This document shows, in pieces, positions 38,253-52,978 of a stretch of 64,000 bases of DNA. This stretch comes from Minisyncoccota bacterium. Its GTDB lineage: Bacteria; Patescibacteriota; Minisyncoccia; Phycocordibacterales; GCA-2401445. Location of the stretch: contig JBBDJV010000015.1 of NCBI GenBank assembly GCA_040879725.1, positions 32,127 through 96,126 on the forward strand, given 5' to 3'. Position numbers and translations under genes: made by a program. Position 1 is the first letter of the stretch, and the number at the start of each line of letters is the position of its first letter. The notes beneath the pieces were generated by a model, which saw nothing but the letters and a program-made list of their open reading frames with translations, was not told where the DNA came from and made no database searches.

Positions 38253-38671
38253 ACCTCAGAATAAAAAAGTTACACAGCGATGCAATTATTCCTTCATACG
38301 CGCACGAGGGTGATGCGGGCATGGATTTGTTCTCACTTGAAAAAGTTGTGATAGAACCCAATACGCAAGTATCACTTGCTACGGGTATTGCGCTTGAAAT
38401 ACCGGAAGGGTACGTAGGTTTGATTTGGGATAAGAGCGGATTGTCGCATAAGCACAGACTAAAAACATTTGGAGGTGTCGTAGACGCAGGGTATCGAGGA
38501 GAAGTGCGAATTGGAATTATGAATTTGTCAGACACTTCATATGTTTTTGAAAAGGGACACAAGATAGCACAGATGTTGATTCAACCTGTCGTCTCGGCTA
38601 CTATTACGGAGTCAGACAACCTTTCAGACTCATCTCGTGGTGAAGGTGGTTTTGGAAGTACAGGAAAATGA
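38249..38671 (+). CDS. dut: dUTP diphosphatase
   Basis: 'AGMDL', 'GVVDAGYRGEV' and 'RIAQ' are dUTPase motifs. It overlaps tmk in ATGA. Confidence 0.9.
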   Translation: MNLRIKKLHSDAIIPSYAHEGDAGMDLFSLEKVVIEPNTQVSLATGIALEIPEGYVGLIWDKSGLSHKHRLKTFGGVVDAGYRGEVRIGIMNLSDTSYVFEKGHKIAQMLIQPVVSATITESDNLSDSSRGEGGFGSTGK

Positions 38672-40374
38672 AAAACGAACTGGAAAAACATATTACAGAA
38701 GCGCTCATAAGTCTTGGTATTGAAGTTACCAAGGGTGTTGTAGTTGAACGTCCAGCGGACAGTACTCACGGAGACTGGTCGAGTACTGTTGCACTTGCAT
38801 ACGCAAAGCAGGCAAAAAAAGCTCCCTTGGCTCTCGGAGAGTCGCTTGTCGCTATTCTGAAAGAAAAAAATATACAACACGTAAAAGATATTTCACTTTT
38901 GCATCCCGGGTTTATAAACATCACACTTACTTCGGAGTACTACACGGAACGCATTAAAGATATCCTTTTAAAAGGAAAAGAGGGTGAGGTGAGTGGTGAG
39001 TTTAAGGGTAAGCGGGTTATGGTTGAATATACCGACCCAAACCCGTTTAAGGTTTTTCATATCGGCCATTTGATGAACAACACAATCGGTGAGTCTATCG
39101 CCTGTTTGATGAGTGCGGGTGGTGCAGACGTGGTGCGTGCTAACTATCAAGGAGATGTCGGTTTGCACGTGGCAAAGGCGATATGGGGAATGCGCCAGAG
39201 TAGGCCGGCATTTCCGGAGGATACCGATGATCTTAAAACAAAAATGACTTTTGTTAGCAATGCGTACGCATACGGTGCTAGTCAGTATGAAAGTGATGAG
39301 CAAGCAAAAAAAGATATTGATGCAATTAACAAAGAAGTCTACACACGTGAAAATGAAGATATAAATGTATACTACGACAAAGGGCGCGCGTGGAGCTTGG
39401 AACATTTTGAAGAAGTTTATGCACTTCTCGGTACAAAGTTTGATATCTACTATTTTGAAAGTGAGGTTGCTACTAAGGGTGTTGAAATTGTTCGCAAGCA
39501 TATAGGGACAGTGTTTGAGGAGAGCAACGGTGCGGTAATATATCGTGGCGAAAAAAATGGATTGCACACACGAGTGTTTATTAACTCACAAGGACTTCCA
39601 ACGTATGACGGAAAAGATATCGGACTTACTTGGAGAAAAGAGGAAACAGACCCAAGTGATATTTCTGTTGTCGTGAGTGCTGAAGAACAGAAAGAGTATT
39701 ACAAAGTACTCGTATCAGCGATACGCGAGATTGATCCCGCGATAAGTGAAAAGATGAGACATGTGACACACGGCATGATGCAAGGGCCTGACGGGACTAA
39801 ATTATCATCAAGAAAAGGTACCGCACTTACCGGAGAGTCACTTATTGAAGAGGTTGAAGAACTTGTATGGGAAAAGCTTCGTGAGAGGGATATGAGTGAA
39901 GAGGATAAAAGAGAAGTGATGCAAGCTGTTTCTGTTGGCGCGGTGAAGTATTCAATACTCCGTTCAAAAACAAGTAGTAACATTGCGTTTGATTTTGATA
40001 AATCAATTTCGTTTGAAGGAGACTCGGGTCCGTACTTGCAGTATACTGCCGTGCGCGCGCGTTCGGTTTTGGATAAAGCGGGAAGCCAATTTCTTGCAGA
40101 TGCTACTCCGGTGTTTGAGGAAGTAGGAAAAGCCCTTTATCTTCTACTTGATAAATTTGAAGAGGTTGTGGTTCGCTCGCAGCGAGAGCTCGAACCGCAT
40201 CATATAGCGACGTACGCAATAGAGCTCGCAAGTGCATTTAACGCTTTCTATGCCAATACGCCTATTCTTAATGTTCCTGAAACACCTTCTCGTCTTGCTC
40301 TTGTGCATGCGGTTGAGTTGGTACTTACACACTCTCTTTCACTTCTCGGTATACGGGTCCCTAAGAAAATGTAG
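38668..40374 (+). CDS. argS: arginine--tRNA ligase
   Basis: 'PNPFKVFHIGHLMNNTIG' (HIGH) and a C-terminal DALR-type anticodon-binding region. It overlaps dut in ATGA. Confidence 0.9.
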   Translation: MKNELEKHITEALISLGIEVTKGVVVERPADSTHGDWSSTVALAYAKQAKKAPLALGESLVAILKEKNIQHVKDISLLHPGFINITLTSEYYTERIKDILLKGKEGEVSGEFKGKRVMVEYTDPNPFKVFHIGHLMNNTIGESIACLMSAGGADVVRANYQGDVGLHVAKAIWGMRQSRPAFPEDTDDLKTKMTFVSNAYAYGASQYESDEQAKKDIDAINKEVYTRENEDINVYYDKGRAWSLEHFEEVYALLGTKFDIYYFESEVATKGVEIVRKHIGTVFEESNGAVIYRGEKNGLHTRVFINSQGLPTYDGKDIGLTWRKEETDPSDISVVVSAEEQKEYYKVLVSAIREIDPAISEKMRHVTHGMMQGPDGTKLSSRKGTALTGESLIEEVEELVWEKLRERDMSEEDKREVMQAVSVGAVKYSILRSKTSSNIAFDFDKSISFEGDSGPYLQYTAVRARSVLDKAGSQFLADATPVFEEVGKALYLLLDKFEEVVVRSQRELEPHHIATYAIELASAFNAFYANTPILNVPETPSRLALVHAVELVLTHSLSLLGIRVPKKM

Positions 40375-40413
40375 ACAGCTTGTTTTTGTTGTGCTATTTT
40401 CGATGTAGAGAAT

Positions 40414-40803
40414 ATGAGCACCACCAAAGTTATTGGGTCTGAATCGTGGAAACAACGCGATCGGTTGTTTCTGAAGGAACTGAAGAAAAAACGAAAGAAA
40501 GGATTACTATCGAAAGAAGAAGAGAGCACAATCACCAATTCATTGTCTTGTTTGAGCACAGATACACGAGAGGTTAATCTCTCGCTTGCGGGGAATGAAG
40601 AAGATTTCAAGCTGTACGAGGGTATGGTTCGAAACATTGTTTTGGATGTTGCCAAAGTAAAGAAGCTACTTTCACTTCTCGCGACACCTAAACACGATGC
40701 AGTTTATGGCCAGTTTGCTTTTGCGGTAGAAGTGCTTGAGCAATCCCGCAGAACCATAACTGAATTCCACGAAAAAAATACTCAAAAAGGGAGCGTGAAA
40801 TGA
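40414..40803 (+). CDS. hypothetical protein (K/E-rich, likely coiled-coil)
   Basis: An ORF with no recognisable motif. It overlaps the next ORF by 4 nt. Confidence 0.45.
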   Translation: MSTTKVIGSESWKQRDRLFLKELKKKRKKGLLSKEEESTITNSLSCLSTDTREVNLSLAGNEEDFKLYEGMVRNIVLDVAKVKKLLSLLATPKHDAVYGQFAFAVEVLEQSRRTITEFHEKNTQKGSVK

Positions 40804-41096
40804 ATTTGTATGTACTTGTCGAGCATGGGATTCTTCCTCCGGACGGAGTGGGAATTCTTAAAACAAACATGGATAAGTGGAGGCTTTCTGTTTCCGCGCG
40901 TGAGCAGTTATGCTTACTGATTCACGACATTGAGTCTCCATACATTACTCTGGATGATGTGATCAGGGTCTGGCGTGAGCTCGGACTTCACGACTGGGTG
41001 AGTGATGAAGGAGAGTCCCTTGAGTGGGGACTCCGCAGGGCGGGCGAGGCGTATACCAGGCTCAAAGCGTTGCACCAGGAGCGAAGATTGGTGTAA
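40800..41096 (+). CDS. hypothetical protein
   Basis: An ORF co-transcribed with 40414..40803 and followed by a strong terminator. Confidence 0.45.
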   Translation: MNLYVLVEHGILPPDGVGILKTNMDKWRLSVSAREQLCLLIHDIESPYITLDDVIRVWRELGLHDWVSDEGESLEWGLRRAGEAYTRLKALHQERRLV

Positions 41097-41110
41097 TTCA
41101 AAAAAAATCA

Positions 41111-41145
41111 AAAGCGCTGGAGAAAGAATCCAGCGCTTTTTTTGT
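41111..41145 (+). terminator. rho-independent terminator
   Basis: 'agcgctgga gaaagaa tccagcgct' followed by TTTTTTT. Confidence 0.8.
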
Positions 41146-41168
41146 GGGAAGTGCTTGCCTTGAGACTA

Positions 41169-41226
41169 TAAGAAATAATTGACAGGGTAGGTATTTAAAC
41201 GTACATTACTTTTAGTTCTTTGATAC
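41169..41226 (+). repeat. 58-bp promoter-containing direct repeat, copy 1
   Basis: 'taagaaataaTTGACAgggtaggtatttaaacgTACATTacttttagttctttgatac' contains TTGACA, a 17-nt spacer, then TACATT. It is identical to 42032..42089. Confidence 0.85.
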
Positions 41227-41307
41227 AGATGTTCATTTTCAGCTGTGGCGAAATGTAGTAGTCACACATCAACAAAAATAGCGAAAACCAAGAAAGGAAA
41301 AACCGCT

Positions 41308-41931
41308 ATGAGCAAGCTCCATAAACAAACTACCAAATTGATTGCCCGTATCGCTGAAAATCTCCCTGAGATGGACAGCGACATCATACAGAGATGGATA
41401 GACAATCCCAAAAGACTTCAGAAGTTTCTGCGGAAGCTTTGTATGCCCGAAAAGGAAATTCCCTTGAATACTATCGACCTCGGCGCACCACCTCGACTTC
41501 CGTTTGACGGAGTCGAAGTAGCTCAGCATGTTGGAAAAGGAATTGTCGAAATCGAACTGCGATCGGACGACAATCTTTACATCGGGGGCAAAAAGGTACT
41601 TCTGTATTTGTCGGAATTGCAGATAGGTAATAAGAAAATTGAGGGACACAAACTTCGCCAAGAGCTCGAAGAAAGCAAACGAGAAGTTCTCTTGAACGCA
41701 AATGTCTCGGACTACCTCTACCACCACCCCGAATTGTTTCCTGAACACTGGAAGAAAGACAAAATCGGGGAAACTCTCTATATCTTCTTCTGGGGAAGCA
41801 TTTTTGTCTCTCCAATGCACGATTTTCTGTATGTCCCGGTTCTGTTTTGGCGTGATGGCGGGTTGTGTCGGGATACCCGCTTCCTCGAGGACGGATGGCA
41901 TCGTCAGGATCCGTCTGCTTCCGTAGCATAA
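41308..41931 (+). CDS. hypothetical protein (alternative start at 41245)
   Basis: An ORF directly downstream of repeat copy 1. The coding strand is supported by the flanking plus-strand promoter and terminator, although two long antisense ORFs cover the same DNA. Confidence 0.5.
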   Translation: MSKLHKQTTKLIARIAENLPEMDSDIIQRWIDNPKRLQKFLRKLCMPEKEIPLNTIDLGAPPRLPFDGVEVAQHVGKGIVEIELRSDDNLYIGGKKVLLYLSELQIGNKKIEGHKLRQELEESKREVLLNANVSDYLYHHPELFPEHWKKDKIGETLYIFFWGSIFVSPMHDFLYVPVLFWRDGGLCRDTRFLEDGWHRQDPSASVA

Positions 41932-41984
41932 CTTGGGTACTTTGGACTTGGTCACTTAGACCTAGCCTTTGAGAACCTTTGATC

Positions 41985-42027
41985 TCAGCCCTGCCCAATT
42001 TTAGATTGGTGCGGGGCTTTTTATTTA
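41985..42027 (+). terminator. probable intrinsic terminator
   Basis: GC-rich imperfect stem 'cagccctgccc...gcggggct' followed by TTTTTATTT. Confidence 0.5.
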
Positions 42028-42031
42028 GGGA

Positions 42032-42089
42032 TAAGAAATAATTGACAGGGTAGGTATTTAAACGTACATTACTTTTAGTTCTTTGATAC
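42032..42089 (+). repeat. 58-bp promoter-containing direct repeat, copy 2
   Basis: Identical to 41169..41226. Confidence 0.85.
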
Positions 42090-42096
42090 GAAGGTT

Positions 42097-42146
42097 GGTC
42101 ATAGCGAAAAGCCTTTTAACTATGTTCAGGGTTTCTCGCTATGACC
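42097..42146 (+). promoter_or_regulatory. 17-bp stem / 16-nt loop hairpin in the 5' leader of 42217..42894
   Basis: 'ggtcatagcgaaaagcc' pairs with 'ggtttctcgctatgacc' (1 mismatch, 1 G-U). Immediately downstream is a tandem 'acagatatg' x2, giving a 3-codon uORF (ATG GGC AAC TGA). Confidence 0.5.
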
Positions 42147-42216
42147 ATGCTGGAAATAGCACCCACCTCGGTGTAGAGGTACAGATATGGGCAACTGAGC
42201 CCAAGGAGATACAGAT

Positions 42217-42894
42217 ATGAGCACAAAAGAATTCGCAATTGCTGAGGTTATGCCGGGGCAATTAAACGCACTGGTTAAAACCATTATGCGTCAGACTGGA
42301 GTGAGTGACCCAAACGAAGCGGTTCGCCTCGTCAATTCAAGGGAGTTTGTACTTACCCGACCAGTCCGTGATTGGCATAAGAAAGAGGGTTTTGTTTATT
42401 TTACTGTTACGAGTGAAAATATGACCGGCGAGGATTGGATTACGTGGTACAAAAATAAGGGCATTGATTTGGAGGACGATGTGAAATGTTTGCTCCGTTC
42501 AGAACATTTTAAGCCGACCTCTGGCGTGACAACGAGAGTTGTGCTTTCCCCGGGATCATCTTTATTGATGAGAGAACGTTTGAAGATTGAATGTCTAGAT
42601 GAGGCGCTTTGTGCTCATGGTTATATGACACCAAACATCGAGCTTGGTTTTCTCATGGACAAAAAGTTCGCAAAAAAGGAAATTGCAGAAGATATGGGCT
42701 TCAACTACATTACGGTCATGCATGATCCCGTTCACATAGCCGGACCAGATCAGCGTTTGGTTTATGTGAGTTCAAGTGCTGATAGGCGTCAGTTTTGTTT
42801 GTTTCGTTACAGATCAAATACTGCATTTGTTCTAAAAGAGGCGTTTGCATTTGCTATTTCGGAAGAACAGTATGCTCTCAGTAAATCAAGCTGA
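42217..42894 (+). CDS. hypothetical protein
   Basis: An ORF preceded by 'aggag' and followed by a strong terminator. Confidence 0.55.
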   Translation: MSTKEFAIAEVMPGQLNALVKTIMRQTGVSDPNEAVRLVNSREFVLTRPVRDWHKKEGFVYFTVTSENMTGEDWITWYKNKGIDLEDDVKCLLRSEHFKPTSGVTTRVVLSPGSSLLMRERLKIECLDEALCAHGYMTPNIELGFLMDKKFAKKEIAEDMGFNYITVMHDPVHIAGPDQRLVYVSSSADRRQFCLFRYRSNTAFVLKEAFAFAISEEQYALSKSS

Positions 42895-42923
42895 GTTTGG
42901 TTTCAAGCAGTGTTAACCTTTTA

Positions 42924-42960
42924 GGCCCCGTCCCACTTTGCGGACGGGGCTTTTCTTTTT
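42924..42960 (+). terminator. rho-independent terminator
   Basis: 'ccccgtcc cactttgc ggacgggg' followed by CTTTTCTTTTT. Confidence 0.8.
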
Positions 42961-43050
42961 ACGGAATTACGGAAGCCAGGCTTCCGTGAAAAGAAAATGT
43001 GGTGTAATTTGCTTACCCTTATTTATACCAAAATTTTCTCTGACATATAG

Positions 43051-43079
43051 TCCACAAAACTCTCCAAAAGTGCTAGAAT
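43051..43079 (+). promoter_or_regulatory. candidate promoter with extended -10 for ileS
   Basis: 'tccaca', a 17-nt spacer, then 'TGcTAGAAT'. This places the transcription start after the ORF-track ATG at 43078. Confidence 0.4.
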
Positions 43080-43101
43080 GACTACATTCGGGCACTTTTT
43101 T

Positions 43102-46100
43102 ATGAGCGAAGAAAATAAAAAATTACAAAAAACACGAGGGGAAAAAGAAAGAGAGATTCTTGAGTTTTGGCGTGAAAATAAGGTGTTTGAGACTTCAGAG
43201 CAAAAACCCGCTCCAAAGGGTGATTTTGTATTTTATGACGGCCCTCCTTTCGCGACAGGTCTTCCTCACTATGGACACATGCTTCCGGCTACTATCAAGG
43301 ACGTAATTCCGCGTTTCAAGACGATGCAAGGTTTTCGCGTGCGCAGACGTTGGGGGTGGGACTGTCACGGGCTACCAGTTGAAAATCTTATTGAGAAAGA
43401 ATTAGGTCTCAAAGACAAGCAAGATATTCTAAAGTACGGAATTGGGAAGTTTAACGTGGAAGCAAAAAATAGTGTTTTGCGCTATGCGGATGATTGGCGT
43501 GAACGTGTTCCACGGTGGGGAAGATGGATAGATATGGAGCAGGACTACCGAACCATGGACCTTGCGTACACAGAATCTATTTGGTGGATGTTTAAAACTT
43601 TGTATGAAAAAAATCTGATTACCGAAGGGTACAAGTCTATGCACCTGTGTCCGCGGTGCGAAACAACTCTTTCGAATTTTGAAGTGAACCAAGGGTATAA
43701 AGATATTACGGATATTTCAGTGTACGTTGCATTTGAATTATCTGATACACCAAACACTTTCCTCCTCGCATGGACAACAACTCCATGGACGCTTCCGGGA
43801 AATGTCGCACTTGCCGTGCATCCTGATGTTGCGTACGTAACAGTAGAACAAGGTGGTAAGAAATATATTCTTGCCGAAGAGCTAGCTCAAAAGAGATTTG
43901 CTATCGGGAGCGATGCCGTACTCAGCGGTTCGCCTATAAAAGGAAGTGAACTTATCGGAAAAGCATACAAACCGGTATTTCCGTACTATGCGGAAGATAC
44001 CACTCTCGAACAGAGAGAAAATGGATGGAAAGTGTACGGCGCGGATTTTGTTACTACGGAAGATGGAACAGGCATTGTGCATATCGCTCCTGCGTTTGGA
44101 GATGACGACATGAAGCTCGGAGAAAAAGAATCACTACCGTTTGTTCAGCATGTTACAACAGGTGGAGTGTTCAAACCGGAAGTAAGTGATTTCGCGGGAG
44201 TGAGTGTGAAGCCGAAAGATGACCATCAGTCAGGTGATGTCGCGATAATTAAATATCTTGCTGGGAAAGGAGTACTTTTTGCAAAAGAAAAAATTATTCA
44301 CTCGTATCCGCACTGTTGGCGGTGCGATACTCCACTTCTTAATTACGCATCAAGCTCTTGGTTTATTAAAGTAACCGCATTTAAAGACAGGCTGGTAGAA
44401 GCAAATAACAATGTTTCTTGGGTACCAAAAGAAATGGGCGAAGGGCGTTTCGGTAAGTGGCTTTTGGGTGCTCGTGATTGGGCAATATCTCGCTCGCGGT
44501 TTTGGGGAGCACCTCTGCCGGTATGGAGAAATGAAGAATCGGGAGAATTATTTATTCCAGGATCGGTTTCTGAACTAAAAGAAAAAATAGGATTTAGAAA
44601 TACGTATTTGGTAATGCGACACGGTGAGGCGGACAGTAATGCGCAAAATATTTTAAGTGGAAAAAAAGATAACCCTCATCACGTAACAGAAAAAGGTAAA
44701 AAGCAGGTTGCTCATGCGGTTGAAAAACTGAAGGGAACATCAGTGGATGTTGTTTTCGTTTCTCCATTTGTTCGCACGAAAGAAACCGCAGAAATGGTAA
44801 AAGAAGCACTCGGGCTTACTGACACACAGATAGTTGTAGATGAGAGAATAGGGGAAATAGATACGGGTGATTTTAATAACACACCTATAGACGAGTATCG
44901 TGCTTACTTTAAGAGTACCGCTGAGAAGTTTTCAAAACCCGCACCAAACGGAGAAAGTTTGCGCGACGTGCGAAGACGAGTAGGCGAGTTTCTGTATGAA
45001 ATTGACGCAAAATATGAAGGCAAAACCATTTTAATTATTTCTCACGAATATCCTATCTGGCAGTTGTATTCTGTTGCGGAAGGATGGGATGAACGTGGTT
45101 CTATTCAGGCAAAAAATGACCGAGATGATTTCGTTGAAACGGGAAGTGTTAACAAAATTTCGTTTGCACGTCTGCCGGTTAATGAATCGTTTGAAACAGA
45201 CTTACATCGTCCGTATATTGATGAAATTGAACTCACCGCAAAAGACGGAACAAAACTGAAAAGAGTACCCGAAGTGTTTGACTGCTGGGTTGAGTCTGGG
45301 TCAATGCCGTTTGCTTCTCGGGGGTATGTTGGGAAAGCACTTCCTGACTTTGATCCGAATACGGGAGTTGGTTTTCCGGCAGACTTTATCGCTGAAGGGC
45401 AAGACCAAACCCGTGGTTGGTTTTACTCACTTATTGTTCTCGGGGTTGCATTGTTTGGAAAATCTCCGTTTAAGAATGTTGTGGTAAACGGTGTGGTGCT
45501 TGCCGGAGATGGGCAGAAAATGAGTAAACGACTTAAGAATTATCCCGATCCGATGGAAGTCGTTGAAACGTACGGTATGGACGCGCTTCGATTGTATTTT
45601 CTCGGTTCACCGCTGGTGAAAGCGGAAGATGTTTCTTTTTCAGAAAAAGGAGTTGATGAGGTAATGAAGAAAAATATCGGCAGACTTGAAAATGTTGTTA
45701 TGTTCTATCAGATGTTTAGTGCGGATGCTGAAGCGACTACAGAGAGCCCACATGTTCTCGATAGATGGATTGTCAGTACGCGTAATAATCTCATTGCGTC
45801 TGTTACGGCTTCACTCACAGCGTATCAGTTTGACCGAGCAGTCAGAGCACTTTCTGATTTTATTGATGATCTTTCAACGTGGTATGTTAGGCGTTCTCGA
45901 GACCGATTCAAAGGGGAAGACAGAGAGGATGCGGGACATGCACGAAGAGTACTTCGAGAAACACTCTCTCTCTTTTCGCAAGTTAGTGCGCCGTTTATTC
46001 CTTTTACCGCAGAGTCTGTGTATCAAATCGTAAAACAAGATGGAGCACCGAAAAGTGTGCATCTCACTGTGTGGCCGGTTGCGGGAGAAATTGACGAAAC

Positions 46101-46584
46101 CCTTTTGTCTGAAATGAAGACAGTAAGAGAAGTGGTGTCACTGGCATTCGAAGCAAGAACCAAAGCAAAAATTAAAGTACGGCAACCTCTCGCATCCCTC
46201 ACAATAAAAACAACACTGCCTACAGTGCTACTTGAACAGATTGCGGAAGAGGTAAATGTAAAAGAAGTTCGGATTGGAGAAACAAAAAATGAAGAAGTAC
46301 TACTCGACACTGTACTTACTCCGGAGTTGATAGAGGAAGGGTACATGCGCGATGTGCTTCGACACATTCAAGAGAAAAGAAAGGACGCAGGTCTAGAGAC
46401 GAGTGACTATATTACACTTACCGTAGTGGGGAATAAAGAAGTTCAAACCCTTATTTCTTCTATGAAAAAAGAATTAGAACGCGTGGCGCAAGTGTCGCGT
46501 ATTGAATTCGAGGAAAAGAGTGAAATGGAGCCGACACTTACACTGGGAGATATGAGTCTTTCGGTTTCAATAAAGAAAGTATAA
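43102..46584 (+). CDS. ileS: isoleucine--tRNA ligase with an embedded histidine-phosphatase (PGM-family) domain
   Basis: Class I motifs 'PFATGLPHYGHM' and 'KMSKRLKN', plus an editing domain. Between 'WAISRSRFWGAPLPVW' and 'RVPEVFDCWVESGSMPF' lies a ~210-aa insert containing 'LVMRHGEADSN' and 'LIISHEYP'. Confidence 0.9.
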   Translation: MSEENKKLQKTRGEKEREILEFWRENKVFETSEQKPAPKGDFVFYDGPPFATGLPHYGHMLPATIKDVIPRFKTMQGFRVRRRWGWDCHGLPVENLIEKELGLKDKQDILKYGIGKFNVEAKNSVLRYADDWRERVPRWGRWIDMEQDYRTMDLAYTESIWWMFKTLYEKNLITEGYKSMHLCPRCETTLSNFEVNQGYKDITDISVYVAFELSDTPNTFLLAWTTTPWTLPGNVALAVHPDVAYVTVEQGGKKYILAEELAQKRFAIGSDAVLSGSPIKGSELIGKAYKPVFPYYAEDTTLEQRENGWKVYGADFVTTEDGTGIVHIAPAFGDDDMKLGEKESLPFVQHVTTGGVFKPEVSDFAGVSVKPKDDHQSGDVAIIKYLAGKGVLFAKEKIIHSYPHCWRCDTPLLNYASSSWFIKVTAFKDRLVEANNNVSWVPKEMGEGRFGKWLLGARDWAISRSRFWGAPLPVWRNEESGELFIPGSVSELKEKIGFRNTYLVMRHGEADSNAQNILSGKKDNPHHVTEKGKKQVAHAVEKLKGTSVDVVFVSPFVRTKETAEMVKEALGLTDTQIVVDERIGEIDTGDFNNTPIDEYRAYFKSTAEKFSKPAPNGESLRDVRRRVGEFLYEIDAKYEGKTILIISHEYPIWQLYSVAEGWDERGSIQAKNDRDDFVETGSVNKISFARLPVNESFETDLHRPYIDEIELTAKDGTKLKRVPEVFDCWVESGSMPFASRGYVGKALPDFDPNTGVGFPADFIAEGQDQTRGWFYSLIVLGVALFGKSPFKNVVVNGVVLAGDGQKMSKRLKNYPDPMEVVETYGMDALRLYFLGSPLVKAEDVSFSEKGVDEVMKKNIGRLENVVMFYQMFSADAEATTESPHVLDRWIVSTRNNLIASVTASLTAYQFDRAVRALSDFIDDLSTWYVRRSRDRFKGEDREDAGHARRVLRETLSLFSQVSAPFIPFTAESVYQIVKQDGAPKSVHLTVWPVAGEIDETLLSEMKTVREVVSLAFEARTKAKIKVRQPLASLTIKTTLPTVLLEQIAEEVNVKEVRIGETKNEEVLLDTVLTPELIEEGYMRDVLRHIQEKRKDAGLETSDYITLTVVGNKEVQTLISSMKKELERVAQVSRIEFEEKSEMEPTLTLGDMSLSVSIKKV

Positions 46585-47172
46585 ATGTACCACGTTCATA
46601 CGACTGAGGCGTATATACTGAGTCGCGTATCACACGGTGAGACAAATGCACTCATTGTGCTTTTTACTCGTGATTTCGGAAGAATACAGGCGGTGGCTCA
46701 AGGTGTGCGAAAAACAACATCAAAGCTCAACCCCTTTTTACAAGAGTACGCATTTGTTCGTATTTCGCTTGTGCGAGGAAAAGAATGGTGGCGTATAGTG
46801 ACCGTGGAGGGAATAGGGTCGCTGTATGTATCCGCAAGAGGAGACGAGCGTCGTCTGCGAATCATAACGCATATTATCAAACTCCTTAATCGTCTTGTTC
46901 AGGGTGAAGAATGCAACGAAGTTTTATTTGATTCACTCTCTGAGGTTTTTCAAAAGCTTTCAGACAGAACACTTACAAAAGAAGAAGTGGTGTCGCTTGA
47001 GATAGTCGGAGTACTGCGCTTGCTTTACCACCTCGGATACGTATCGCGTTCGGACGAAACGGTAGCGCTTTCGGAAGAAGTGATAACAAAAGATATTCTT
47101 ACTCGCGTGCACACATTGCGGAAGTCATACATTTCTTCCATAAACGCGTCCCTTAAAATTACTCACCTCTAG
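46585..47172 (+). CDS. recO: DNA repair protein RecO (short form, no zinc finger)
   Basis: 'EAYILSRVSHGETNALIVLFTRDFGRIQAVAQGVRKTTSKLNPFLQ' is the RecO N-terminal OB-fold pattern. The ATG follows the ileS stop directly. Confidence 0.6.
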   Translation: MYHVHTTEAYILSRVSHGETNALIVLFTRDFGRIQAVAQGVRKTTSKLNPFLQEYAFVRISLVRGKEWWRIVTVEGIGSLYVSARGDERRLRIITHIIKLLNRLVQGEECNEVLFDSLSEVFQKLSDRTLTKEEVVSLEIVGVLRLLYHLGYVSRSDETVALSEEVITKDILTRVHTLRKSYISSINASLKITHL

Positions 47173-47196
47173 AGGTGCTATGATATACTGAATACA

Positions 47197-49140
47197 ATGC
47201 AAAACGAGCGTCCGGAAGATAATATAGAGCGAATAAAGAGGAAGCTGTATTCACCGCAGGGTACTCGGATTCAACGTGAAAAGACGGTTGAATTGCATAA
47301 GCAGTCCTTTGAGGTACCCGAGGGGTGGCAGGAAGGGGGTGGAGCAAATGCAAAAAATATCGACTATTCTATGGCACGACGTAATTTACATGATCACTCA
47401 CTACTAAAGAAACTACTGCTTGTCGCGGTTGTATTTTTCTGTGTCGCTGTGGGAATATTCTCGTATCTATATTTCGGTGGATTAAACACTATTTCATCTC
47501 AGAATGTCGATATCAGTATTGTTGCTCCTGTTTCAGTTGGTGGAGGAGAAGAGTTACCAATACAACTTACCGTAACCAACCGTAATGCAATTCCGCTTGA
47601 ATCGGTACTATTAACAGTTGAGTTTCCTGAAGGTACACGGTCTCCTACTAACTTAAGTCAGCCGTTGCTTCGGTATACTTATGACTTGGGTGGGATACAG
47701 TCTGGAGATAGCGTAAACCACACGGTCGACGCAATACTTTTCGGTGAAGAAAATAGCATTAAGAATATCAAAGTATCAATTGAGTATCGTGTTCCTGATT
47801 CGAGTGCGCGTTTATATAAAGAGAAAATGTATGAACCGACAATCAGCTCATCGCCTATTCTTGTTGCACTTCAGTCAATTACTGAAACAAGCTCAGGAAA
47901 AGAATTTGAAATGACGATTAACGTTTCTTCAAACTCAAATACTACAGTTGAAGACTTACTCCTTCGAGCAGAATATCCTTTCGGATACCAGTTTGTGAGC
48001 GCAAGTCCTGAGCCGGATTTTGATGACAATGTGTGGCAAATTGGTGATTTGCGACCTGAACAAAAGAAAACTATTACAATCAGAGGGTCACTAACTGGCG
48101 AGGATGGTTCAATGCGCGCGTTTAACTTTTCTGTGGGAAGCCAAGGTGGTTCGGATGAAAAGAACATAGGCATTCCGCTTATATCAAGACAAGAAACAAT
48201 TGAAATAACTCGTCCGTTTATCGGAACATCACTGGCGCTTAACGGTAACTCAAACGGGGACGCGGTAATCCGCGCGGGGCAGACAGTACGTGGAGATATC
48301 ACATACGTAAATAATTTACCAACACAAGTGACTGATGTTCAGATTGAGGTGAAGCTCGCTGGCTCTGTTCTTGATCGCCGTTCTGTTTCAGCAGGTACAG
48401 GATTTTATCGCTCAATCGACGACACAATAGTATGGGAGAAGAGCAGAGTGTCGGATTTAGCAACACTTAATCCAGGTGAAAATGGAACGCTGTCTTTCAG
48501 TGTCTCACCGGTTACCATTACATCCGGAACTCTTTCTTCATTCCAAAACCCGGAGATGTCGTTTGTGGTGAGCGTAAAGGGTACCCGAGTTTCCGAATCA
48601 AATGTTCCGGAGGAAATAACATCAAGTGTTGAATCAAAAGCAACACTCTCATCAAATTTGTCTATTAGGCCTCGATTGGTATACTCTGAGGGTCCATTCG
48701 TAAATACTGGTCCGGTTCCTCCAAAGGTGGAAACGGAAACTGTTTACACCGTGTACTGGACAATAACAAACACAACAAACGACGTTTCGGGCGCGCGGGT
48801 TACCGCTTCGCTTCCATTTTACGCTCGGTGGGTGGGTCAGGTAAGTCCTCCAAATGAGCGCGTAACCTATAATCAGGTGGGAAGTCAGATTGTTTGGGAT
48901 GTGGGCGATGTGTCTGCGGGTAGCGGAATACTTTCAACCCCGCGTGAAGTGGCGTTCCAGGTTGCTATTCTTCCGAGTTTGAGCCAAGTAGGTGTAGCAC
49001 CGAATGTTATCGGAGGAACCCAACTGAGAGGGTTTGATACATTTACTGAAACAACAATTACAGCGGATGCGGATGCAATTACAACACAGCTAAGTAGTGA
49101 TCCGGTATACGGATTTTCAAGTGGACGAGTGGTTGAATAA
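47197..49140 (+). CDS. hypothetical N-terminally membrane-anchored extracytoplasmic protein (647 aa)
   Basis: A ~60-aa cytoplasmic N-terminus, a TM (LLLVAVVFFCVAVGIFSYLYF) and a large S/T-rich beta-type ectodomain. Confidence 0.6.
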   Translation: MQNERPEDNIERIKRKLYSPQGTRIQREKTVELHKQSFEVPEGWQEGGGANAKNIDYSMARRNLHDHSLLKKLLLVAVVFFCVAVGIFSYLYFGGLNTISSQNVDISIVAPVSVGGGEELPIQLTVTNRNAIPLESVLLTVEFPEGTRSPTNLSQPLLRYTYDLGGIQSGDSVNHTVDAILFGEENSIKNIKVSIEYRVPDSSARLYKEKMYEPTISSSPILVALQSITETSSGKEFEMTINVSSNSNTTVEDLLLRAEYPFGYQFVSASPEPDFDDNVWQIGDLRPEQKKTITIRGSLTGEDGSMRAFNFSVGSQGGSDEKNIGIPLISRQETIEITRPFIGTSLALNGNSNGDAVIRAGQTVRGDITYVNNLPTQVTDVQIEVKLAGSVLDRRSVSAGTGFYRSIDDTIVWEKSRVSDLATLNPGENGTLSFSVSPVTITSGTLSSFQNPEMSFVVSVKGTRVSESNVPEEITSSVESKATLSSNLSIRPRLVYSEGPFVNTGPVPPKVETETVYTVYWTITNTTNDVSGARVTASLPFYARWVGQVSPPNERVTYNQVGSQIVWDVGDVSAGSGILSTPREVAFQVAILPSLSQVGVAPNVIGGTQLRGFDTFTETTITADADAITTQLSSDPVYGFSSGRVVE

Positions 49141-49146
49141 CATTAT

Positions 49147-50526
49147 ATGAGCAAAAAAGAAATTAATAACACAATGGAGCAGGTGGTTTCTCTCGCGAAG
49201 CGACGAGGTTTTATATTTCAAGGTTCAGAAATTTACGATGGACTTGCCGGTACGTGGGACTACGGACCGCTTGGTGTTGCTCTTAAAAACAATATCAAGC
49301 AACTATGGTGGAGGCGTTTCGTCGAATCACGTGAAGATATGTATGGCGTGGACGCGGCAATTTTAATGAATCAGAATGTTTGGAAAGCGAGCGGACACGT
49401 GGGAGGTTTTAACGACCCTCTTGTTGATGATACAAAAACAAAAAAACGGTACCGCGCAGACCATTTACTTGAAGAAAATGGGGTTAACCCTATAGGAATG
49501 TCACTGGCGGACATGAATGCGTGCATAAAGGAAAAGGGAATAAAGAGTCCTGATGGAAATCCGCTCGGCGAAGTGAGACAGTTTAACATGATGTTCAAAA
49601 CACATGTCGGGGCAACCGAAGATGAGAATGCCATCTCATACCTTCGCCCAGAGACCGCGCAGGGTATGTTTGTTAATTTTAAAAATGTGATGGATTCGTT
49701 TAGTCCCAAACTGCCGTTTGGTTTGGGGCAAATAGGTAAAGCATTTCGAAATGAAATCGCACCTCGTGACTTCATTTTCAGAACAAGAGAGTTTGAGCAA
49801 ATGGAAGTTGAGTACTTTGTACACCCAAATGACTGGGAGCGAGCATTTGAAGAGTGGAGACTTGAAATGCATGCATTTATTGCCGATATTGGTTTACCTG
49901 AAGACAGAGTGCATGATCTTGAGGTTGCGGATGGTGATCGAGCCCATTATTCAAAGCGTACTATTGATATTGAATTCGATTATCCTTTCGGACGAAAGGA
50001 ATTGTATGGTCTTGCGTACCGAACAGACTACGATTTGAAGAAACATCAGGAGTTCAGTGGAGAATCACTTGAATACTTTGATCAGGAAACGCGAGAAAAG
50101 TTTGTTCCGCATGTTATAGAGCCGTCACTGGGTCTTGATAGAACGGTTCTTGCGGTTCTTACAAGCGCGTATACGGAAGACGATTTAGGAGGGGAGAAGC
50201 GTGTGTACTTAAAATTTTCACCTCGTATTGCACCAGTACAGGTGGCAGTATTTCCGCTTCTCAAGAATAAACCTGATTTGGTGGAAAAAGCCAGAGAGGT
50301 ATTTGCTCTCCTCAAGAGTGAAGGGTTCCGCACCCGTTTTGATGATAATGGAAATATCGGAAAGCGATACAGAAGACAAGATGAGATAGGAACACCATTT
50401 TGTGTGACGATAGACTTTGACACCATTGAAAAAGATTCTACTGTAACAGTAAGAAATAGAGATACCGGTAAGCAAGAGAGAGTTCCTCTTGATTCACTCA
50501 TAGCAGAAATCAAAAAACACCTTTAG
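49147..50526 (+). CDS. glyS: glycine--tRNA ligase (alpha2 dimeric type)
   Basis: 'FIFQGSEIYDGLAGTWDYGPLGV' and 'FRNEI.PR' are class II motifs. Confidence 0.9.
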   Translation: MSKKEINNTMEQVVSLAKRRGFIFQGSEIYDGLAGTWDYGPLGVALKNNIKQLWWRRFVESREDMYGVDAAILMNQNVWKASGHVGGFNDPLVDDTKTKKRYRADHLLEENGVNPIGMSLADMNACIKEKGIKSPDGNPLGEVRQFNMMFKTHVGATEDENAISYLRPETAQGMFVNFKNVMDSFSPKLPFGLGQIGKAFRNEIAPRDFIFRTREFEQMEVEYFVHPNDWERAFEEWRLEMHAFIADIGLPEDRVHDLEVADGDRAHYSKRTIDIEFDYPFGRKELYGLAYRTDYDLKKHQEFSGESLEYFDQETREKFVPHVIEPSLGLDRTVLAVLTSAYTEDDLGGEKRVYLKFSPRIAPVQVAVFPLLKNKPDLVEKAREVFALLKSEGFRTRFDDNGNIGKRYRRQDEIGTPFCVTIDFDTIEKDSTVTVRNRDTGKQERVPLDSLIAEIKKHL

Positions 50527-50571
50527 GTGTTTTTTGTTTCCATAGTCATATTTTTTTGATAGACTGCCTGA

Positions 50572-51840
50572 ATGAAACCAAAAAAATATATTCTGAACAA
50601 TGGAATTCGCCTTGTTGTGGCGCCCATGAAAGATAACCCTACCGTAACAGCTTTAGTGCTGGTTGAAGCCGGTTCAAAGTATGAAAAAAAGGAGGAAAAT
50701 GGTATTTCTCATTTTCTTGAACATATGATGTTTAAGGGAACTCTTAAACGCCCGCGTGCACTTGATATTAGCCGGGAGCTTGATGCTCTTGGTGCTGAGT
50801 ACAACGCATTTACATCACAGGAATTTACCGGTTACTACGCAAAAGCTAACAAAAAACATGCAGAAAAAGTGGTTGATGTTGTGGCGGATATTTTTCAAAA
50901 CCCAACGTTTCCCGAAGTGGAATTAAACCGTGAGCGAGGAGTGATTATCGAGGAGATAAATATGTACGAAGACATGCCTCATCGCATGGTACACGATGTA
51001 TTTATGGAGTTGCTCTACGGAGACCAGCCAGCTGGCTGGGGTATAGCCGGAACAAAAGAGGTTATAAAGAGTGTAAAACCCGAACAGTTTAGAAACTACC
51101 ACACGGCTCACTACGTACCTGAGGCAACGACTGTTGTTATTGCAGGTGCGATAACAACGGGAGACGCAAAGAAACTCGCAGAAAAATATTTTGGGGAAAT
51201 GAAAAAAGCGAAAAAATCTCCAAAGAAAAAAGTAAAAGAATCTCAAAAGGCTCCACAGATAAAGATTAGAGAAAAGAAAACAGATCAAATGCATCTAGTG
51301 CTTGGTGTGCGTACGTTTAGTATGACACACATGGATGATGTCGTACTCTCAGTGCTTTCGGGAGTGCTTTCGGGCGGAATGAGTTCTCGGCTATTTCAGA
51401 AAATGCGAGAAGAGCTTGGGGTTTGTTACTACGTACGTGCAACAAATGATGCCTATACTGACCATGGAGTACTCACTATTTCAGCGGGAATTGATAAATC
51501 ACGACTACACGAAGTTATTGAAGTGTTACTGTCTGAACTTAAACGGCTCACTGTCGAAAAAGTAGATGAAAGCGAACTGAAAAAAGTAAAAGAGTATTTG
51601 ATTGGAACGTACTTACTTCGGATGGAAACAAGTGACGCGGTGGGGCAGAGTTTTGGATTTGAAGAATGCCTAAAACACTCAGTAAAAGGAGTGGCTGAAA
51701 CTATTGCGGAAGTAAAGGCGGTTACAGGCGAAGATATTAAACGTGTCGCAAAAAAGATTATGAAAAACGATCGTCTTAATTTGGCGATTATTGGGAGCGG
51801 AGTTGATGAAAAAGCTATTAAAAAGATTTTGACATTCTAA
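50572..51840 (+). CDS. M16-family (pitrilysin-like) zinc peptidase
   Basis: The inverted zinc motif 'HFLEHMMFKGT' (HxxEH) and a downstream Glu. Confidence 0.8.
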   Translation: MKPKKYILNNGIRLVVAPMKDNPTVTALVLVEAGSKYEKKEENGISHFLEHMMFKGTLKRPRALDISRELDALGAEYNAFTSQEFTGYYAKANKKHAEKVVDVVADIFQNPTFPEVELNRERGVIIEEINMYEDMPHRMVHDVFMELLYGDQPAGWGIAGTKEVIKSVKPEQFRNYHTAHYVPEATTVVIAGAITTGDAKKLAEKYFGEMKKAKKSPKKKVKESQKAPQIKIREKKTDQMHLVLGVRTFSMTHMDDVVLSVLSGVLSGGMSSRLFQKMREELGVCYYVRATNDAYTDHGVLTISAGIDKSRLHEVIEVLLSELKRLTVEKVDESELKKVKEYLIGTYLLRMETSDAVGQSFGFEECLKHSVKGVAETIAEVKAVTGEDIKRVAKKIMKNDRLNLAIIGSGVDEKAIKKILTF

Positions 51841-51851
51841 GAGGTGCGTCC

Positions 51852-52973
51852 TTGTGGTATTATGAAGGCATGCGGTATGAGAATACTCCTATTTCTATAA
51901 CCATCACATCGGGAACAATAATAAAAGTTCTCCTCCTTCTTGTTACGGTATATCTGCTTTTTGTATTGAAAGATATCGTAATGGTTATTCTGACATCCGT
52001 GGTTATTGCTTCAGCGGTGGAGCCGTGGACACTTTGGTTTGAAAAACGAGGTATGCGCAGACTTCCTGCAGTTATGGTTATCTACGGTACTGTTGCGCTA
52101 TCGGCAATAGCATTTTTCTACCTTTTCCTTCCACCACTCCTTGACGAAACGGCTGGATTACTTCGTACACTTCCTGCGTATCTTGAATCTACTGAACTAT
52201 GGGATCCTGGGAATACCGACAATGCACTTATTAATATAAGTAATACTTTCGAAGAGTTGGGAGATTCATTTTCAACGAGAGATTTACTCGGTAGTGTTCA
52301 GTCGAGCATCTCAAACATCTCCGCCGGGTTTATCAGAACCGCAAGTGTATTTTTCGGTGGCTTACTTAGCTTTGTAATTATTGTGGTACTTTCTTTTTAC
52401 TTGGCGGTACAAAAAGGAGGCGTTGAGTCTTTCTTACGTATAGTTACTCCAATCAAAAACGAGACATATATTATTGGTTTGTGGCAGAGGTCTCAAATGA
52501 AAATAGGGCAGTGGATGCAGGGACAGTTACTGCTTGGTGTTATTGTTGGAGTGTTGGTATACCTCGGACTTTCTATTTTGGGAGTTCCGTATGCGTTCCT
52601 TCTCGCCCTTCTTGCTGCGGTTCTCGAGTTGGTACCACTCTTTGGTCCGATTATCGCCGCAATACCAGCTGTTGGAATTGCATTTGGTGACGGGGGAGTG
52701 ACAGCGGTACTTCTTGTTGTAGGTCTCTATGTTATCATTCAACAATTCGAAAATCATCTCATTTATCCCCTTGTTGTACGGAAAGTGGTCGGCGTGCCTC
52801 CTCTATTGGTAATCTTGGCGCTTCTTGTCGGAGCTAAACTTGCTGGTTTCCTCGGAGTGCTCCTTGCGGTCCCTATCGCCGCAGCGCTTCGAGAGTATCT
52901 CTTCGATGTGGAAGTGAATAGAAAGAAGGCTGAAGAGGTGCTTGCGGACGATGCCCAACATGAGGTAAGGTAG
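51852..52973 (+). CDS. AI-2E family transporter (UPF0118/PerM-like permease)
   Basis: A polytopic membrane protein with the characteristic 'LELVPLFGPIIAAIPA' segment. Confidence 0.7.
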   Translation: MWYYEGMRYENTPISITITSGTIIKVLLLLVTVYLLFVLKDIVMVILTSVVIASAVEPWTLWFEKRGMRRLPAVMVIYGTVALSAIAFFYLFLPPLLDETAGLLRTLPAYLESTELWDPGNTDNALINISNTFEELGDSFSTRDLLGSVQSSISNISAGFIRTASVFFGGLLSFVIIVVLSFYLAVQKGGVESFLRIVTPIKNETYIIGLWQRSQMKIGQWMQGQLLLGVIVGVLVYLGLSILGVPYAFLLALLAAVLELVPLFGPIIAAIPAVGIAFGDGGVTAVLLVVGLYVIIQQFENHLIYPLVVRKVVGVPPLLVILALLVGAKLAGFLGVLLAVPIAAALREYLFDVEVNRKKAEEVLADDAQHEVR

Positions 52974-52978
52974 AGCAA

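Follow-up and report, generated by a model that had tools for sequence, protein, structure and literature searches.

A branch-1 histidine phosphatase nested in CP3 of a type-2 isoleucyl-tRNA synthetase from Paceibacteria/Parcubacteria

Aminoacyl-tRNA synthetases (aaRSs) are among the most conserved enzymes known. The extra domains of eukaryotic aaRSs are well documented, and most of them are non-catalytic appendages at the termini. The stretch of DNA analysed here, 64,000 nucleotides in length and hereafter called the window, contains an isoleucyl-tRNA synthetase (IleRS) gene for which an earlier note, made from the sequence alone, proposed a histidine phosphatase inside the synthetase itself. 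The locus raises two questions: whether a complete second enzyme is present within an otherwise normal IleRS, and what such an enzyme might do there.

An intact type-2 synthetase interrupted in CP3

The ileS open reading frame covers 43078..46584 on the forward (+) strand, as do all features described below, and encodes 1168 aa, with the stop codon counted within the coordinates. The true start is probably Met9, at nt 43102, which gives a protein of 1160 aa, the length stated in the earlier note. This start is favoured by an NCBI MAG protein (P0014) of 100% identity and 1160 aa that begins at Met9, by the near-invariance of Met9 in the homologue alignment, and by the pLDDT below 50 of residues 1–17 in the full-length AF2 model. 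No second ileS was seen within the 64-kb window.

The whole product matches the NCBIfam model TIGR00392 with 871.2 bits against a cut-off of 621.4, and Pfam recognizes tRNA-synt_1 in two separate stretches, His_Phos_1, Anticodon_1 and DUF5915. In phmmer searches with the window IleRS, type-2 IleRS structures were retrieved with E ~1e-212, as compared with 1e-95 for the type-1 enzyme of S. aureus. Type-2 structures also rank first in Foldseek searches with the full model, P. megaterium IleRS2 and yeast IleRS being the closest, and the C-terminal domain is of the DUF5915 type found in type-2 enzymes, in contrast to the zinc-binding tail of type 1. A MupA/MupB identity was rejected (~700 bits against a cut-off of 1900). 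The best explanation is that the gene encodes the housekeeping type-2 (eukaryote-like) IleRS of a Paceibacteria/Parcubacteria (CPR) bacterium. Since Rfam and tRNA scans of the window returned nothing, no RNA feature is involved.

On the evidence of its sequence, the synthetase retains every part required for aminoacylation and CP1 editing. The class I 'HIGH' signature appears as the motif HYGH at aa 64–67 (43267..43278), with H64 and G66 invariant and Y65 and H67 at least 90% conserved among 119 sequences, and the 'KMSKS' signature as the motif KMSKR at aa 814–818 (45517..45531), with K814 and K817 invariant in the same set. The CP1 editing domain occupies approximately aa 201–415 (43678..44322), of which aa 206–412 match the isolated IleRS editing domain 1wk8. 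Its motifs WTTTPWT (aa 232–238) and GTGIVHIAPAFGDDD (aa 330–344) contain the residues W232, T233–235, W237, T238, G330, G332, H335, A337, G341 and D344, all invariant in the 119 sequences. Since this canonical editing site is intact, we rejected the idea that the insert replaces editing. The anticodon-binding helical domain follows at aa 895–1038 (45760..46191; Pfam Anticodon_1, E=2e-30), and the type-2 IleRS C-terminal domain at aa 1057–1168 (46246..46581; DUF5915 = PF19302, E=1e-16).

The alignment to yeast IleRS (8wnd) is broken only once: residues 22–508 of the query match chain residues 12–496, and residues 707–1066 match 498–883. The break defines the insert as aa 509–706 (44602..45195), a clean single-site insertion of ~198 aa in place of one yeast IleRS residue, inside CP3. 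The earlier estimate of ~210 aa at 44560–45200 was thus essentially right. On the upstream side, the CP2–CP3 linker (WAISRSRFWG) and the N-terminal part of CP3 (44479..44601) align to ScIleRS ~455–496; this part of CP3 consists of two short strands and the helix 'SVSELKEKIG' and ends at Asn508, present in 120 of 121 sequences. On the downstream side, the rest of CP3, C-terminal to the insert, and the chain's return to the second Rossmann half (DLHRPYIDEIEL ... RVPEVFDCWVESGSMPF; 45196..45312) match ScIleRS from residue 498 on. Along the protein, the conserved motifs lie in the order WAISRSRFWGAPLPVW (aa 468–483), YLVMRHGE (aa 510–517), ISHEYPIW (aa 654–661) and RVPEVFDCWVESGSMPF (aa 729–745).

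The insertion site is the loop between two CP3 helices. CP3, defined as residues 459–526 in one study (PMC7955072), belongs to the variable periphery of the catalytic domain (PMC7191050, PMC7955072), and its topology differs among the Thermus, Staphylococcus and Candida IleRSs (PMC7191050). The phosphatase therefore lies within IleRS, as the earlier note had it, but in a peripheral subdomain and not in the Rossmann core, which refines its earlier placement in the catalytic core. The chain returns to the synthetase through the linker 'LPVNESFETDLHRP' (aa 699–712; 45172..45213), which rejoins the second CP3 helix. This linker is family-specific and conserved, with the consensus LPHNxxYELDLHRP (P700 in 117/121, N702 in 116/121, E706 in 110/121 and H710 in 121/121 sequences), and its pLDDT exceeds 90 in the full-length AF2 model.

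A complete phosphatase fold with conserved catalytic residues

The insert matches His_Phos_1 (PF00300) over aa 511–672 with E=9.7e-34 and 117.2 bits, against a gathering threshold of 21.7. Pfam, NCBIfam and the alignment together bear out a complete branch-1 histidine phosphatase between the WxISRxRxWG and DCWxESG blocks of IleRS. The earlier description of the insert as running from the RHG to the SHE motif was correct at its beginning but not at its end, as the fold extends ~45 residues past SHE, to 'KISFARLPVNESFE'.

The RHG motif (44617..44625) consists of Arg514, His515, the predicted phospho-accepting nucleophile, and Gly516, and its first two residues pair with R8–H9 of iPSP1. In an alignment of 168 homologues, Arg514 and His515 are present in all sequences and Gly516 in 164. 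The phosphate-pocket residue Asn521 (44638..44640) is found in 158/168. The second phosphate-binding arginine, Arg566 in 'SPFVRTKETA' (44773..44775), and the second catalytic histidine, His656 in 'ILIISHE' (45043..45045), are both found in 168/168, and the predicted general acid/base, Glu593 in 'GEIDTG' (44854..44856), is Glu in 164 and Asp in the remaining 4. The insert therefore has the complete His_Phos_1 fold with all catalytic residues conserved. The earlier note had made its claim depend on these residues and on the insert not being a known IleRS subdomain; Arg514, His515, Asn521, Arg566, Glu593 and His656 are all present and (nearly) invariant, and the insert aligned to no subdomain in the solved IleRS structures.

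Our preferred reading, to which we assign a probability of about 0.55, is that the gene encodes a bifunctional fusion, in which a normal IleRS carries an active phosphomonoesterase nested in CP3. The insert would then use the two-step mechanism standard for its family. The phosphoryl group would be held by Arg514, Asn521, Arg566 and His656 while His515 attacks, and Glu593 would protonate the leaving group and subsequently activate a water molecule, leading to hydrolysis of the phospho-histidine.

The same conservation can be read in another way. The domain may be non-catalytic, sensing phosphate or a ligand, or acting as a structural or oligomerization module that regulates or stabilizes IleRS, as the histidine-phosphatase domain of tau55 in TFIIIC and other pseudo-phosphatases may do. 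A ligand sensor would also conserve its phosphate-binding residues, no subfamily could be assigned to the insert, and CP3 is a variable and insertion-tolerant region (PMC7191050). However, His515 is invariant and Glu593 is replaced only by Asp across sequences that are ~40% identical, a signature of catalysis and not of binding alone. Pseudo-enzymes of the histidine phosphatase family typically lose at least one of the nucleophile and acid/base residues. We consider a purely non-catalytic role unlikely.

The phosphomonoesterase reading leads to the question of the substrate. AF2 modelled the phosphatase domain alone with a pLDDT of 96.2 and a pTM of 0.92, and the whole protein with 91.8 and 0.86, respectively. 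The domain shows the branch-1 architecture, an alpha/beta fold with a central sheet and a cap; the cap is helical (helices 604–610 and 616–619 in the AF2 models), as is typical of small-molecule enzymes. Structurally, the domain lies nearest to metabolite phosphatases whose cap is closed, and the protein phosphatases rank below them (SixA 16.6, PGAM5 14.6, Sts-2 13.6). On the other hand, the insert scores below every subfamily-specific NCBIfam cut-off, including those for PspA/iPSP (NF045917; 81.4 bits against 350), the alpha-ribazole phosphatase CobC (TIGR03162; 82.1 against 162.9) and the phosphohistidine phosphatase SixA (TIGR00249; 42 against 74.5), the last of which has the minimal capless fold. 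Since all of these cut-offs were missed, the class that we favour, that of a small-molecule phosphatase, is drawn solely from the structural neighbourhood. By analogy with the closest structural relatives, which include phosphoserine, glucosyl-3-phosphoglycerate and alpha-ribazole-phosphate phosphatases as well as the broad-specificity PhoE, the substrate may be a small phosphorylated metabolite.

A more specific proposal along these lines would be that the insert is a cofactor-dependent phosphoglycerate mutase (dPGM), or another missing enzyme of central metabolism, parked in the IleRS of a reduced genome. CPR genomes have undergone strong reduction and readily acquire gene fusions, the best NCBIfam match of the insert is a short archaeal-type dPGM model (95 bits), and the S. 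pombe and human PGMs are good structural neighbours. Nevertheless, this match falls short of the dPGM_arch cut-off of 225, TIGR01258 reaches only 34 bits against 81.7 and does so over the N-terminal 70 residues, and the bacterial dPGM models cover only the first 60–90 residues of the insert. The mutase C-terminal tail is absent and the closest structures are phosphatases and not mutases, which makes a parked mutase very unlikely.

Distribution, inheritance and recurrence

PF00300 is present in all of the best 120 full-length homologues. At E<=1e-30, the homologues form ~179 clusters at 50% identity, nearly all of which span both insert junctions, and a phosphatase-bearing IleRS is encoded in the genomes of at least 182 GTDB species. 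In the GTDB locus scan, which was built from 8 closer insert sequences, the phosphatase lies inside a long ORF at 80 of the 80 loci inspected, with a length of 1150–1270 aa where the contig contains the whole gene. The named carriers belong to Paceibacteria/Parcubacteria groups, a lineage of ultra-small and probably symbiotic bacteria. In a large clade of Paceibacteria/Parcubacteria, the IleRS with a nested phosphatase is the standard form. This architecture, which the earlier note set apart from canonical IleS, is absent from the solved IleRSs but not confined to the window. No further His_Phos copies were found beyond the ileS one, either in the window or at the 80 related loci.

The architecture is already in the public databases without a specific name. 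The proteins that have it are annotated only in general terms, for instance as 'class I tRNA ligase family protein'. A literature search on aaRSs and IleRSs with a nested histidine phosphatase found no description of it.

Pairwise identity is 40% in the insert, 56–63% in the IleRS core and 36% in the C-terminal domain, and the divergence of the insert is correlated with that of the core (r=0.82). At the 76% identity of the closest relative, saturation of synonymous sites would be expected, and selection was therefore judged by residue-level conservation. Our analysis shows that a single, ancient acquisition gave rise to the architecture and that hundreds of species have since inherited it vertically, under purifying selection. 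An assembly chimera, an intein or mobile insertion, or a decaying neutral insertion might have been suspected from the slightly more A+T-rich composition of the insert (GC 0.40–0.42, against 0.43–0.47 in the flanks). The same in-frame architecture, however, is found in every one of the 80 independent assemblies examined and recurs in hundreds of protein clusters, Pfam detected no intein, Hint or homing-endonuclease domain, and the insert has diverged together with its host gene and is present in all of the best 120 homologues. Its recurrence across genomes and the invariance of its catalytic residues refute an artefact or a selfish element, and we give this explanation practically no credence.

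The same fold recurs elsewhere in class Ia synthetases. One protein carries tandem His_Phos copies in CP3 (P0260), another has His_Phos at a second IleRS site (P0275), and a few ValRS fragments have it at the CP3 site (P0240, P0283–P0288). The catalytic motifs are kept in all copies inspected. The ValRS cases come from fragmentary, low-coverage contigs, and one of them, the array protein P0240, contains an in-frame stop. Recoding of UGA (code 25) was rejected, as this stop is TAA; it possibly arose from a sequencing error or marks a pseudogene. Two relatives have additional domains: a Patescibacteria protein (P0053) combines GNAT in CP1 with His_Phos in CP3, and P0235 adds a P-loop kinase-like domain, for which the matches are weak and non-specific (APS kinase, shikimate kinase and Pnkp1, E 0.02–0.06). 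In length and domain content, the ArgRS, MetRS and class II aaRSs of the same window are ordinary. The repeated capture by class Ia synthetases and the conserved return linker may hint at a functional link to the synthetase, as opposed to an unrelated passenger.

Possible coupling to aminoacylation and comparison with known systems

Such a link could take the form of a phosphatase coupled to aminoacylation, that is, a third active site of a class Ia synthetase acting on a translation-linked phospho-substrate. On tRNAs whose CCA end is damaged or toxin-modified, the candidate substrates would be a 3'-terminal phosphate, a 2',3'-cyclic phosphate or a pyrophosphate; AMP or another nucleotide product would be a further candidate, as would a phosphorylated compound that is an inhibitor or near-cognate of IleRS. 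CP3 would place the phosphatase beside the path of the tRNA acceptor end, where the CCA end of tRNA(Ile) could, for example, be stripped of a 3'-phosphate or pyrophosphate just before aminoacylation; alternatively, a phosphorylated inhibitor or by-product could be destroyed at the synthetic site. The insertion starts ~25 residues past the CP2–CP3 linker, which in yeast IleRS lines the pocket for the tRNA 3' end and reveromycin A (PMC7955072). Conservation at the junctions (N508 and LPHNxxYE) exceeds that of most of the phosphatase domain, and the pTM of 0.86 for the whole protein suggests a fixed geometry, in which the phosphatase would be rigidly docked on CP3. Neighbours of the CobC and HFP type have nucleotide-like 5'-phosphates as substrates, and the extra P-loop domain of P0235, with Pnkp1 among its weak matches, would also fit, although we did not use it as evidence on the substrate. 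If coupling were real, the recurrence of His_Phos with its catalytic motifs kept, captured repeatedly by IleRS (in tandem copies and at two different sites) and by some ValRSs in the equivalent position of CP3, would reflect selection for it.

Several observations weigh against coupling. Our searches found no enzyme of the histidine phosphatase superfamily acting on tRNA ends, and we know of none. The insert is mildly acidic and not basic (median net charge −2, and −7 in the window protein), and hence gives no hint of a general RNA-binding surface. Its nearest structures are the closed-cap metabolite phosphatases. Moreover, only IleRS and rarely ValRS has the domain, which would be odd for general tRNA-end repair, and the ValRS examples are the fragmentary ones, including that with the in-frame stop. 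We therefore regard coupling to aminoacylation as possible but doubtful, and retain the bifunctional fusion with a metabolite phosphomonoesterase as our working model.

In either case, a complete and apparently active second enzyme lies inside CP3 of an essential synthetase and has long been kept in a whole lineage. If the phosphatase is a passenger, the architecture would illustrate how reduced genomes pack functions into essential genes, and would mark CP3 as a site where protein engineers could place insertions. Coupling to charging would instead make the phosphatase a new kind of quality control or repair activity in translation. The nested architecture also flags a large set of generically named database proteins.

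Among known systems, the synthetase part most resembles the type-2 IleRSs of Priestia megaterium (IleRS2, 8C8U-W), yeast (7D5C, 8WND) and Thermus thermophilus (1ILE). In common with the window protein, they have the HIGH, KMSKS and editing motifs and the domain order Rossmann fold, CP core, CP1 editing, CP2, CP3, anticodon-binding and C-terminal junction domains, and the similarity reaches E ~1e-212 in phmmer and target-normalized TM values of 0.80–0.89 in Foldseek. While the solved IleRSs have nothing at the insertion point, CP3 of the window protein holds an entire second enzyme fold.

The insert, in turn, resembles metabolite histidine phosphatases such as iPSP1/PspA of Hydrogenobacter thermophilus (4IJ5), PhoE (1H2E) and GpgP Rv2419c (6S2Q, 4PZ9), together with CobC (6E4B) and HFP (9MMH) of the same small-histidine-phosphatase group. 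Sequence identity to the iPSP1 group is 27–28%, with the catalytic Arg-His, Arg, Glu and His aligned. His85 of iPSP1, which we take to be required for phosphoserine specificity, corresponds to Thr596 in the insert, a position that varies within the insert family (Ala, Thr, Val, Phe). All of these enzymes are stand-alone proteins, whereas the window phosphatase is nested in another enzyme.

That IleRS can harbour a foreign enzyme domain is known from the NCBIfam family NF040702, an IleRS with an inserted GNAT. It differs in both the domain family and the insertion site: the window protein scores 319 bits against its cut-off of 1999, and Pfam detected no acetyltransferase (GNAT) domain in it. 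Branch-1 histidine phosphatases joined to another enzyme are also known from the RNase H/acid phosphatase proteins (Rv2228c type, PRK07238), the second-best NCBIfam match of the insert (90 bits against a cut-off of 326), and from PFK-2/FBPase-2. These are end-to-end fusions with partners unrelated to aaRSs, whereas the phosphatase described here is nested within its host enzyme.

The ileS gene and the site of the insertion

The ileS gene is a single long ORF of 1168 aa (43078..46584, + strand). In its product, Pfam recognises the class I synthetase catalytic domain in two stretches, a His_Phos_1 domain at aa 511–672 (E = 9.7e-34; 117 bits, cut-off 21.7), Anticodon_1 and a C-terminal DUF5915 domain. 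The NCBIfam call is ileS (871 bits, cut-off 621), followed by the type-2 MupA and MupB models. An identical protein (P0014), an NCBI MAG protein from 'Candidatus Paceibacterota' named 'class I tRNA ligase family protein', starts at Met9 and comprises 1160 aa, the length that an earlier note on this DNA had assigned to IleS. This start is probably the true one, since Met9 is near-invariant in the family alignment and the model shows residues 1–17 as disordered. The HYGH and KMSKR motifs and the CP1 editing residues are all invariant in that alignment, and the full-length model (pLDDT 91.8, pTM 0.86) superposes best on type-2 IleRS structures. The host is an ordinary type-2 IleRS.

The boundaries of the insert were set by a phmmer comparison of the protein with all PDB sequences. 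Residues 22–508 align with yeast IleRS 12–496, and residues 707–1066 with yeast 498–883; the foreign segment is therefore aa 509–706 (nt 44602–45195, + strand), a clean insertion in the place of one yeast residue. Yeast IleRS residues 459–526 constitute the CP3 subdomain, and residues 453–465 the CP2–CP3 linker, which lines the tRNA-end/reveromycin pocket (PMC7955072). The Candida CP3 (residues 473–534) has a beta-beta-alpha-alpha topology, and the CP3 topology is not the same in the Candida, Thermus and Staphylococcus enzymes (PMC7191050). Judging from the phmmer boundaries and the published limits of CP3, the phosphatase is nested between the two CP3 helices 'SVSELKEKIG' and 'DLHRPYIDE'. The peptide blocks quoted in the earlier note were found exactly where it had placed them, and the nesting within IleRS holds; the site, however, is not the catalytic core in the sense of the Rossmann core proper, but CP3, a peripheral and evolutionarily plastic subdomain outside it. 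The GC content across the insert is 0.40–0.42, and that of the flanks is only slightly different.

The insert as a candidate phosphatase

The Pfam match, the modelled fold and the conserved catalytic residues bear out the claim of a complete histidine-phosphatase domain. The best solved sequence relatives are the H. thermophilus phosphoserine phosphatase iPSP1 (E = 5e-14), PhoE, S. pombe PGM, TIGAR and CobC, whose RHG, SP..R..TA, E...G and SH motifs match those of the insert position by position. An AF2 model of the insert, built from 119 sequences, reached a pLDDT of 96.2 and a pTM of 0.92, and Foldseek gave TM values of 0.70–0.77 against these same enzymes. The protein phosphatases of the superfamily had lower scores (SixA 16.6, PGAM5 14.6 and Sts-2 13.6). 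The insert belongs to the His_Phos_1 superfamily as an ordinary representative. Every NCBIfam equivalog scored well below its cut-off with the insert, and a specific subfamily therefore cannot be given. Those of the dPGM family are among them, which makes a hidden dPGM, for all the resemblance to S. pombe PGM, a very improbable reading.

Across 168 full-length proteins aligned with MAFFT, the expected Arg, His, Arg, His set (Arg514, His515, Arg566 and His656) is invariant, residue 593 is Glu in 164 proteins and Asp in four, and Asn521 is kept in 158. Identity between members is ~40% in the insert, 56–63% in the IleRS core and 36% in the C-terminal tRNA-binding domain. Low overall identity combined with invariant catalytic residues is the pattern expected of an active enzyme that purifying selection maintains. 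We consider a role as a non-catalytic sensor or scaffold improbable, because the nucleophile is invariant and the acid nearly so.

Our analyses show that the IleRS is intact and that the His_Phos fold, at a constant position within it, is likewise intact and conserved. By analogy with the established mechanism of the superfamily, His515 would be transiently phosphorylated, with the phosphoryl group held by Arg514, Asn521, Arg566 and His656, and Glu593 would serve as the acid/base. As for the substrate, a small phosphorylated metabolite is favoured by the structural neighbours, by the retention of the cap helices and by the acidity of the surface (net charge of the insert −7 in the window protein, median −2 in the family). 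A bifunctional fusion, in which IleRS is joined to a phosphatase acting on such a metabolite, is therefore our preferred reading, with a probability of roughly 0.55.

Descent and further domain capture

The survey of related lineages found PF00300 in all of the 120 best full-length homologues (53–100% identity), whose source names include Paceibacterota, Patescibacteria, Lloyd-, Yonath- and Taylorbacteria. An exhaustive HMMER scan of 1.84 billion cluster representatives yielded 179 clusters at E ≤ 1e-30, nearly all spanning both junctions plus the insert, and a pattern scan of one genome per species found the architecture in at least 182 GTDB species. In each of 80 retrieved loci, which include Nomura-, Vogel-, Zambryski- and Adlerbacteria and Minisyncoccia, the His_Phos domain lies within one long ORF, at residue ~490–600 where the N-terminus is on the contig; ORFs complete on their contig measure 1150–1270 aa. 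The divergence of the insert follows that of the rest of IleRS (pairwise r = 0.82), which indicates a single old acquisition followed by vertical descent.

An artefact or a mobile element as the source of the insert was excluded. One locus with this Paceibacteria-type IleRS (L008) belongs to a MAG that bears the label 'Spirochaetia bacterium', and for many others, such as L001, L003 and L007, the source is a TPA MAG with the label 'uncultured Candidatus Saccharibacteria bacterium'. Mis-binning of contigs or the use of generic labels probably accounts for these cases, rather than true occurrences outside Paceibacteria. An apparently stand-alone protein of 208 aa (P0232), 41% identical to the insert, begins with Met a few residues before RHG and ends just past 'LPAN'. 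This protein may be a free-living relative of the inserted domain; alternatively, it may be a fragment left by a disrupted ileS.

Relatives carry extra domains at several sites, which marks this synthetase as a hotspot of domain capture. In P0260, CP3 holds three or more His_Phos copies in tandem; P0275 has a second copy where the anticodon-binding domain starts, and P0053 has a GNAT domain inside CP1 besides the CP3 His_Phos. P0235, an IleRS relative of 1395 aa (L081 4001–8188), combines the CP3 His_Phos with a P-loop kinase-like domain of ~170 aa (Walker A GACGAGKTT), located between DCWFESGSMPYA and PADFIAEG and weakly matching APS kinase, shikimate kinase, Pnkp1 and zeta-toxin kinases. P0240, a ValRS (L082 366–3851; NCBIfam valS, ~400 bits), carries a single His_Phos in the CP2 region and a tandem array of three directly after 'RDWCISRQIWWGHRIPVWY', at the equivalent CP3 site. 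It comes from 3.9-kb contigs, the contig name of L082 giving ~2x coverage, and its ORF stops at an in-frame TAA beyond which phosphatase-like sequence goes on in frame; this protein therefore carries limited weight. Five further fragmentary ValRS proteins (among P0283–P0288) pair PF00133 with PF00300, a combination absent from most ValRS. The catalytic motifs are kept in all inspected His_Phos copies of these variants.

IleRS and ValRS have captured this fold repeatedly, the insert is close in sequence to the CP2–CP3 linker at the tRNA-end pocket, and the junction residues Asn508 and LPHNxxYE are conserved beyond most of the domain. All three observations would suit a phosphatase activity coupled to charging, be it dephosphorylation of the tRNA 3' end or the turnover of nucleotides or of an inhibitor. 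We regard such coupling as the main alternative to the bifunctional fusion, possible though rather unlikely.

Genomic setting and known systems

The ileS gene sits among housekeeping genes. Four aminoacyl-tRNA synthetase genes lie on one strand within 16 kb (38668–54415): ArgRS upstream (38668–40371), IleRS (43078–46584), a class II synthetase with an HGTP anticodon domain (49147–50523) and a short MetRS of 478 aa (52979–54412). Only IleRS bears a foreign domain, the other three having ordinary domain content. Just upstream of ileS are two + strand ORFs without a Pfam match (41245–41931 and 42217–42894), the former wholly overlapped by an equally long antisense ORF (41269–41955, − strand). A recO-like gene (46585–47172; RecO_N, E = 7e-15) begins directly behind the ileS stop codon, at the very next base, an arrangement suggestive of co-transcription and translational coupling; a DUF11 protein, the class II synthetase, an M16 peptidase, an AI-2E transporter and MetRS follow in this order. 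No second His_Phos copy was found elsewhere in the 64-kb window, and no tRNA genes or Rfam families at the gathering threshold were detected across positions 1–64000. A giant ORF of 5654 aa (696–17660, + strand), whose first 4900 aa match only Ig-like surface domains in Pfam (Bact_surface_Ig-like, Ig_Rha78A_N), resembles the very large surface proteins for which CPR bacteria are known.

A full-text literature search found no description of an aminoacyl-tRNA synthetase with a histidine-phosphatase domain, yet homologous proteins, with automatically computed Pfam domains, are already in public databases; the architecture is therefore undescribed, but not unseen. The nearest precedents are the NCBIfam family 'ileS_w_GNAT', in which another enzyme domain likewise lies within IleRS, and RNase H/acid phosphatase, in which a histidine phosphatase is also fused to another enzyme, but end-to-end. 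What is unusual is the combination of a type-2 IleRS with His_Phos_1, rather than either component.
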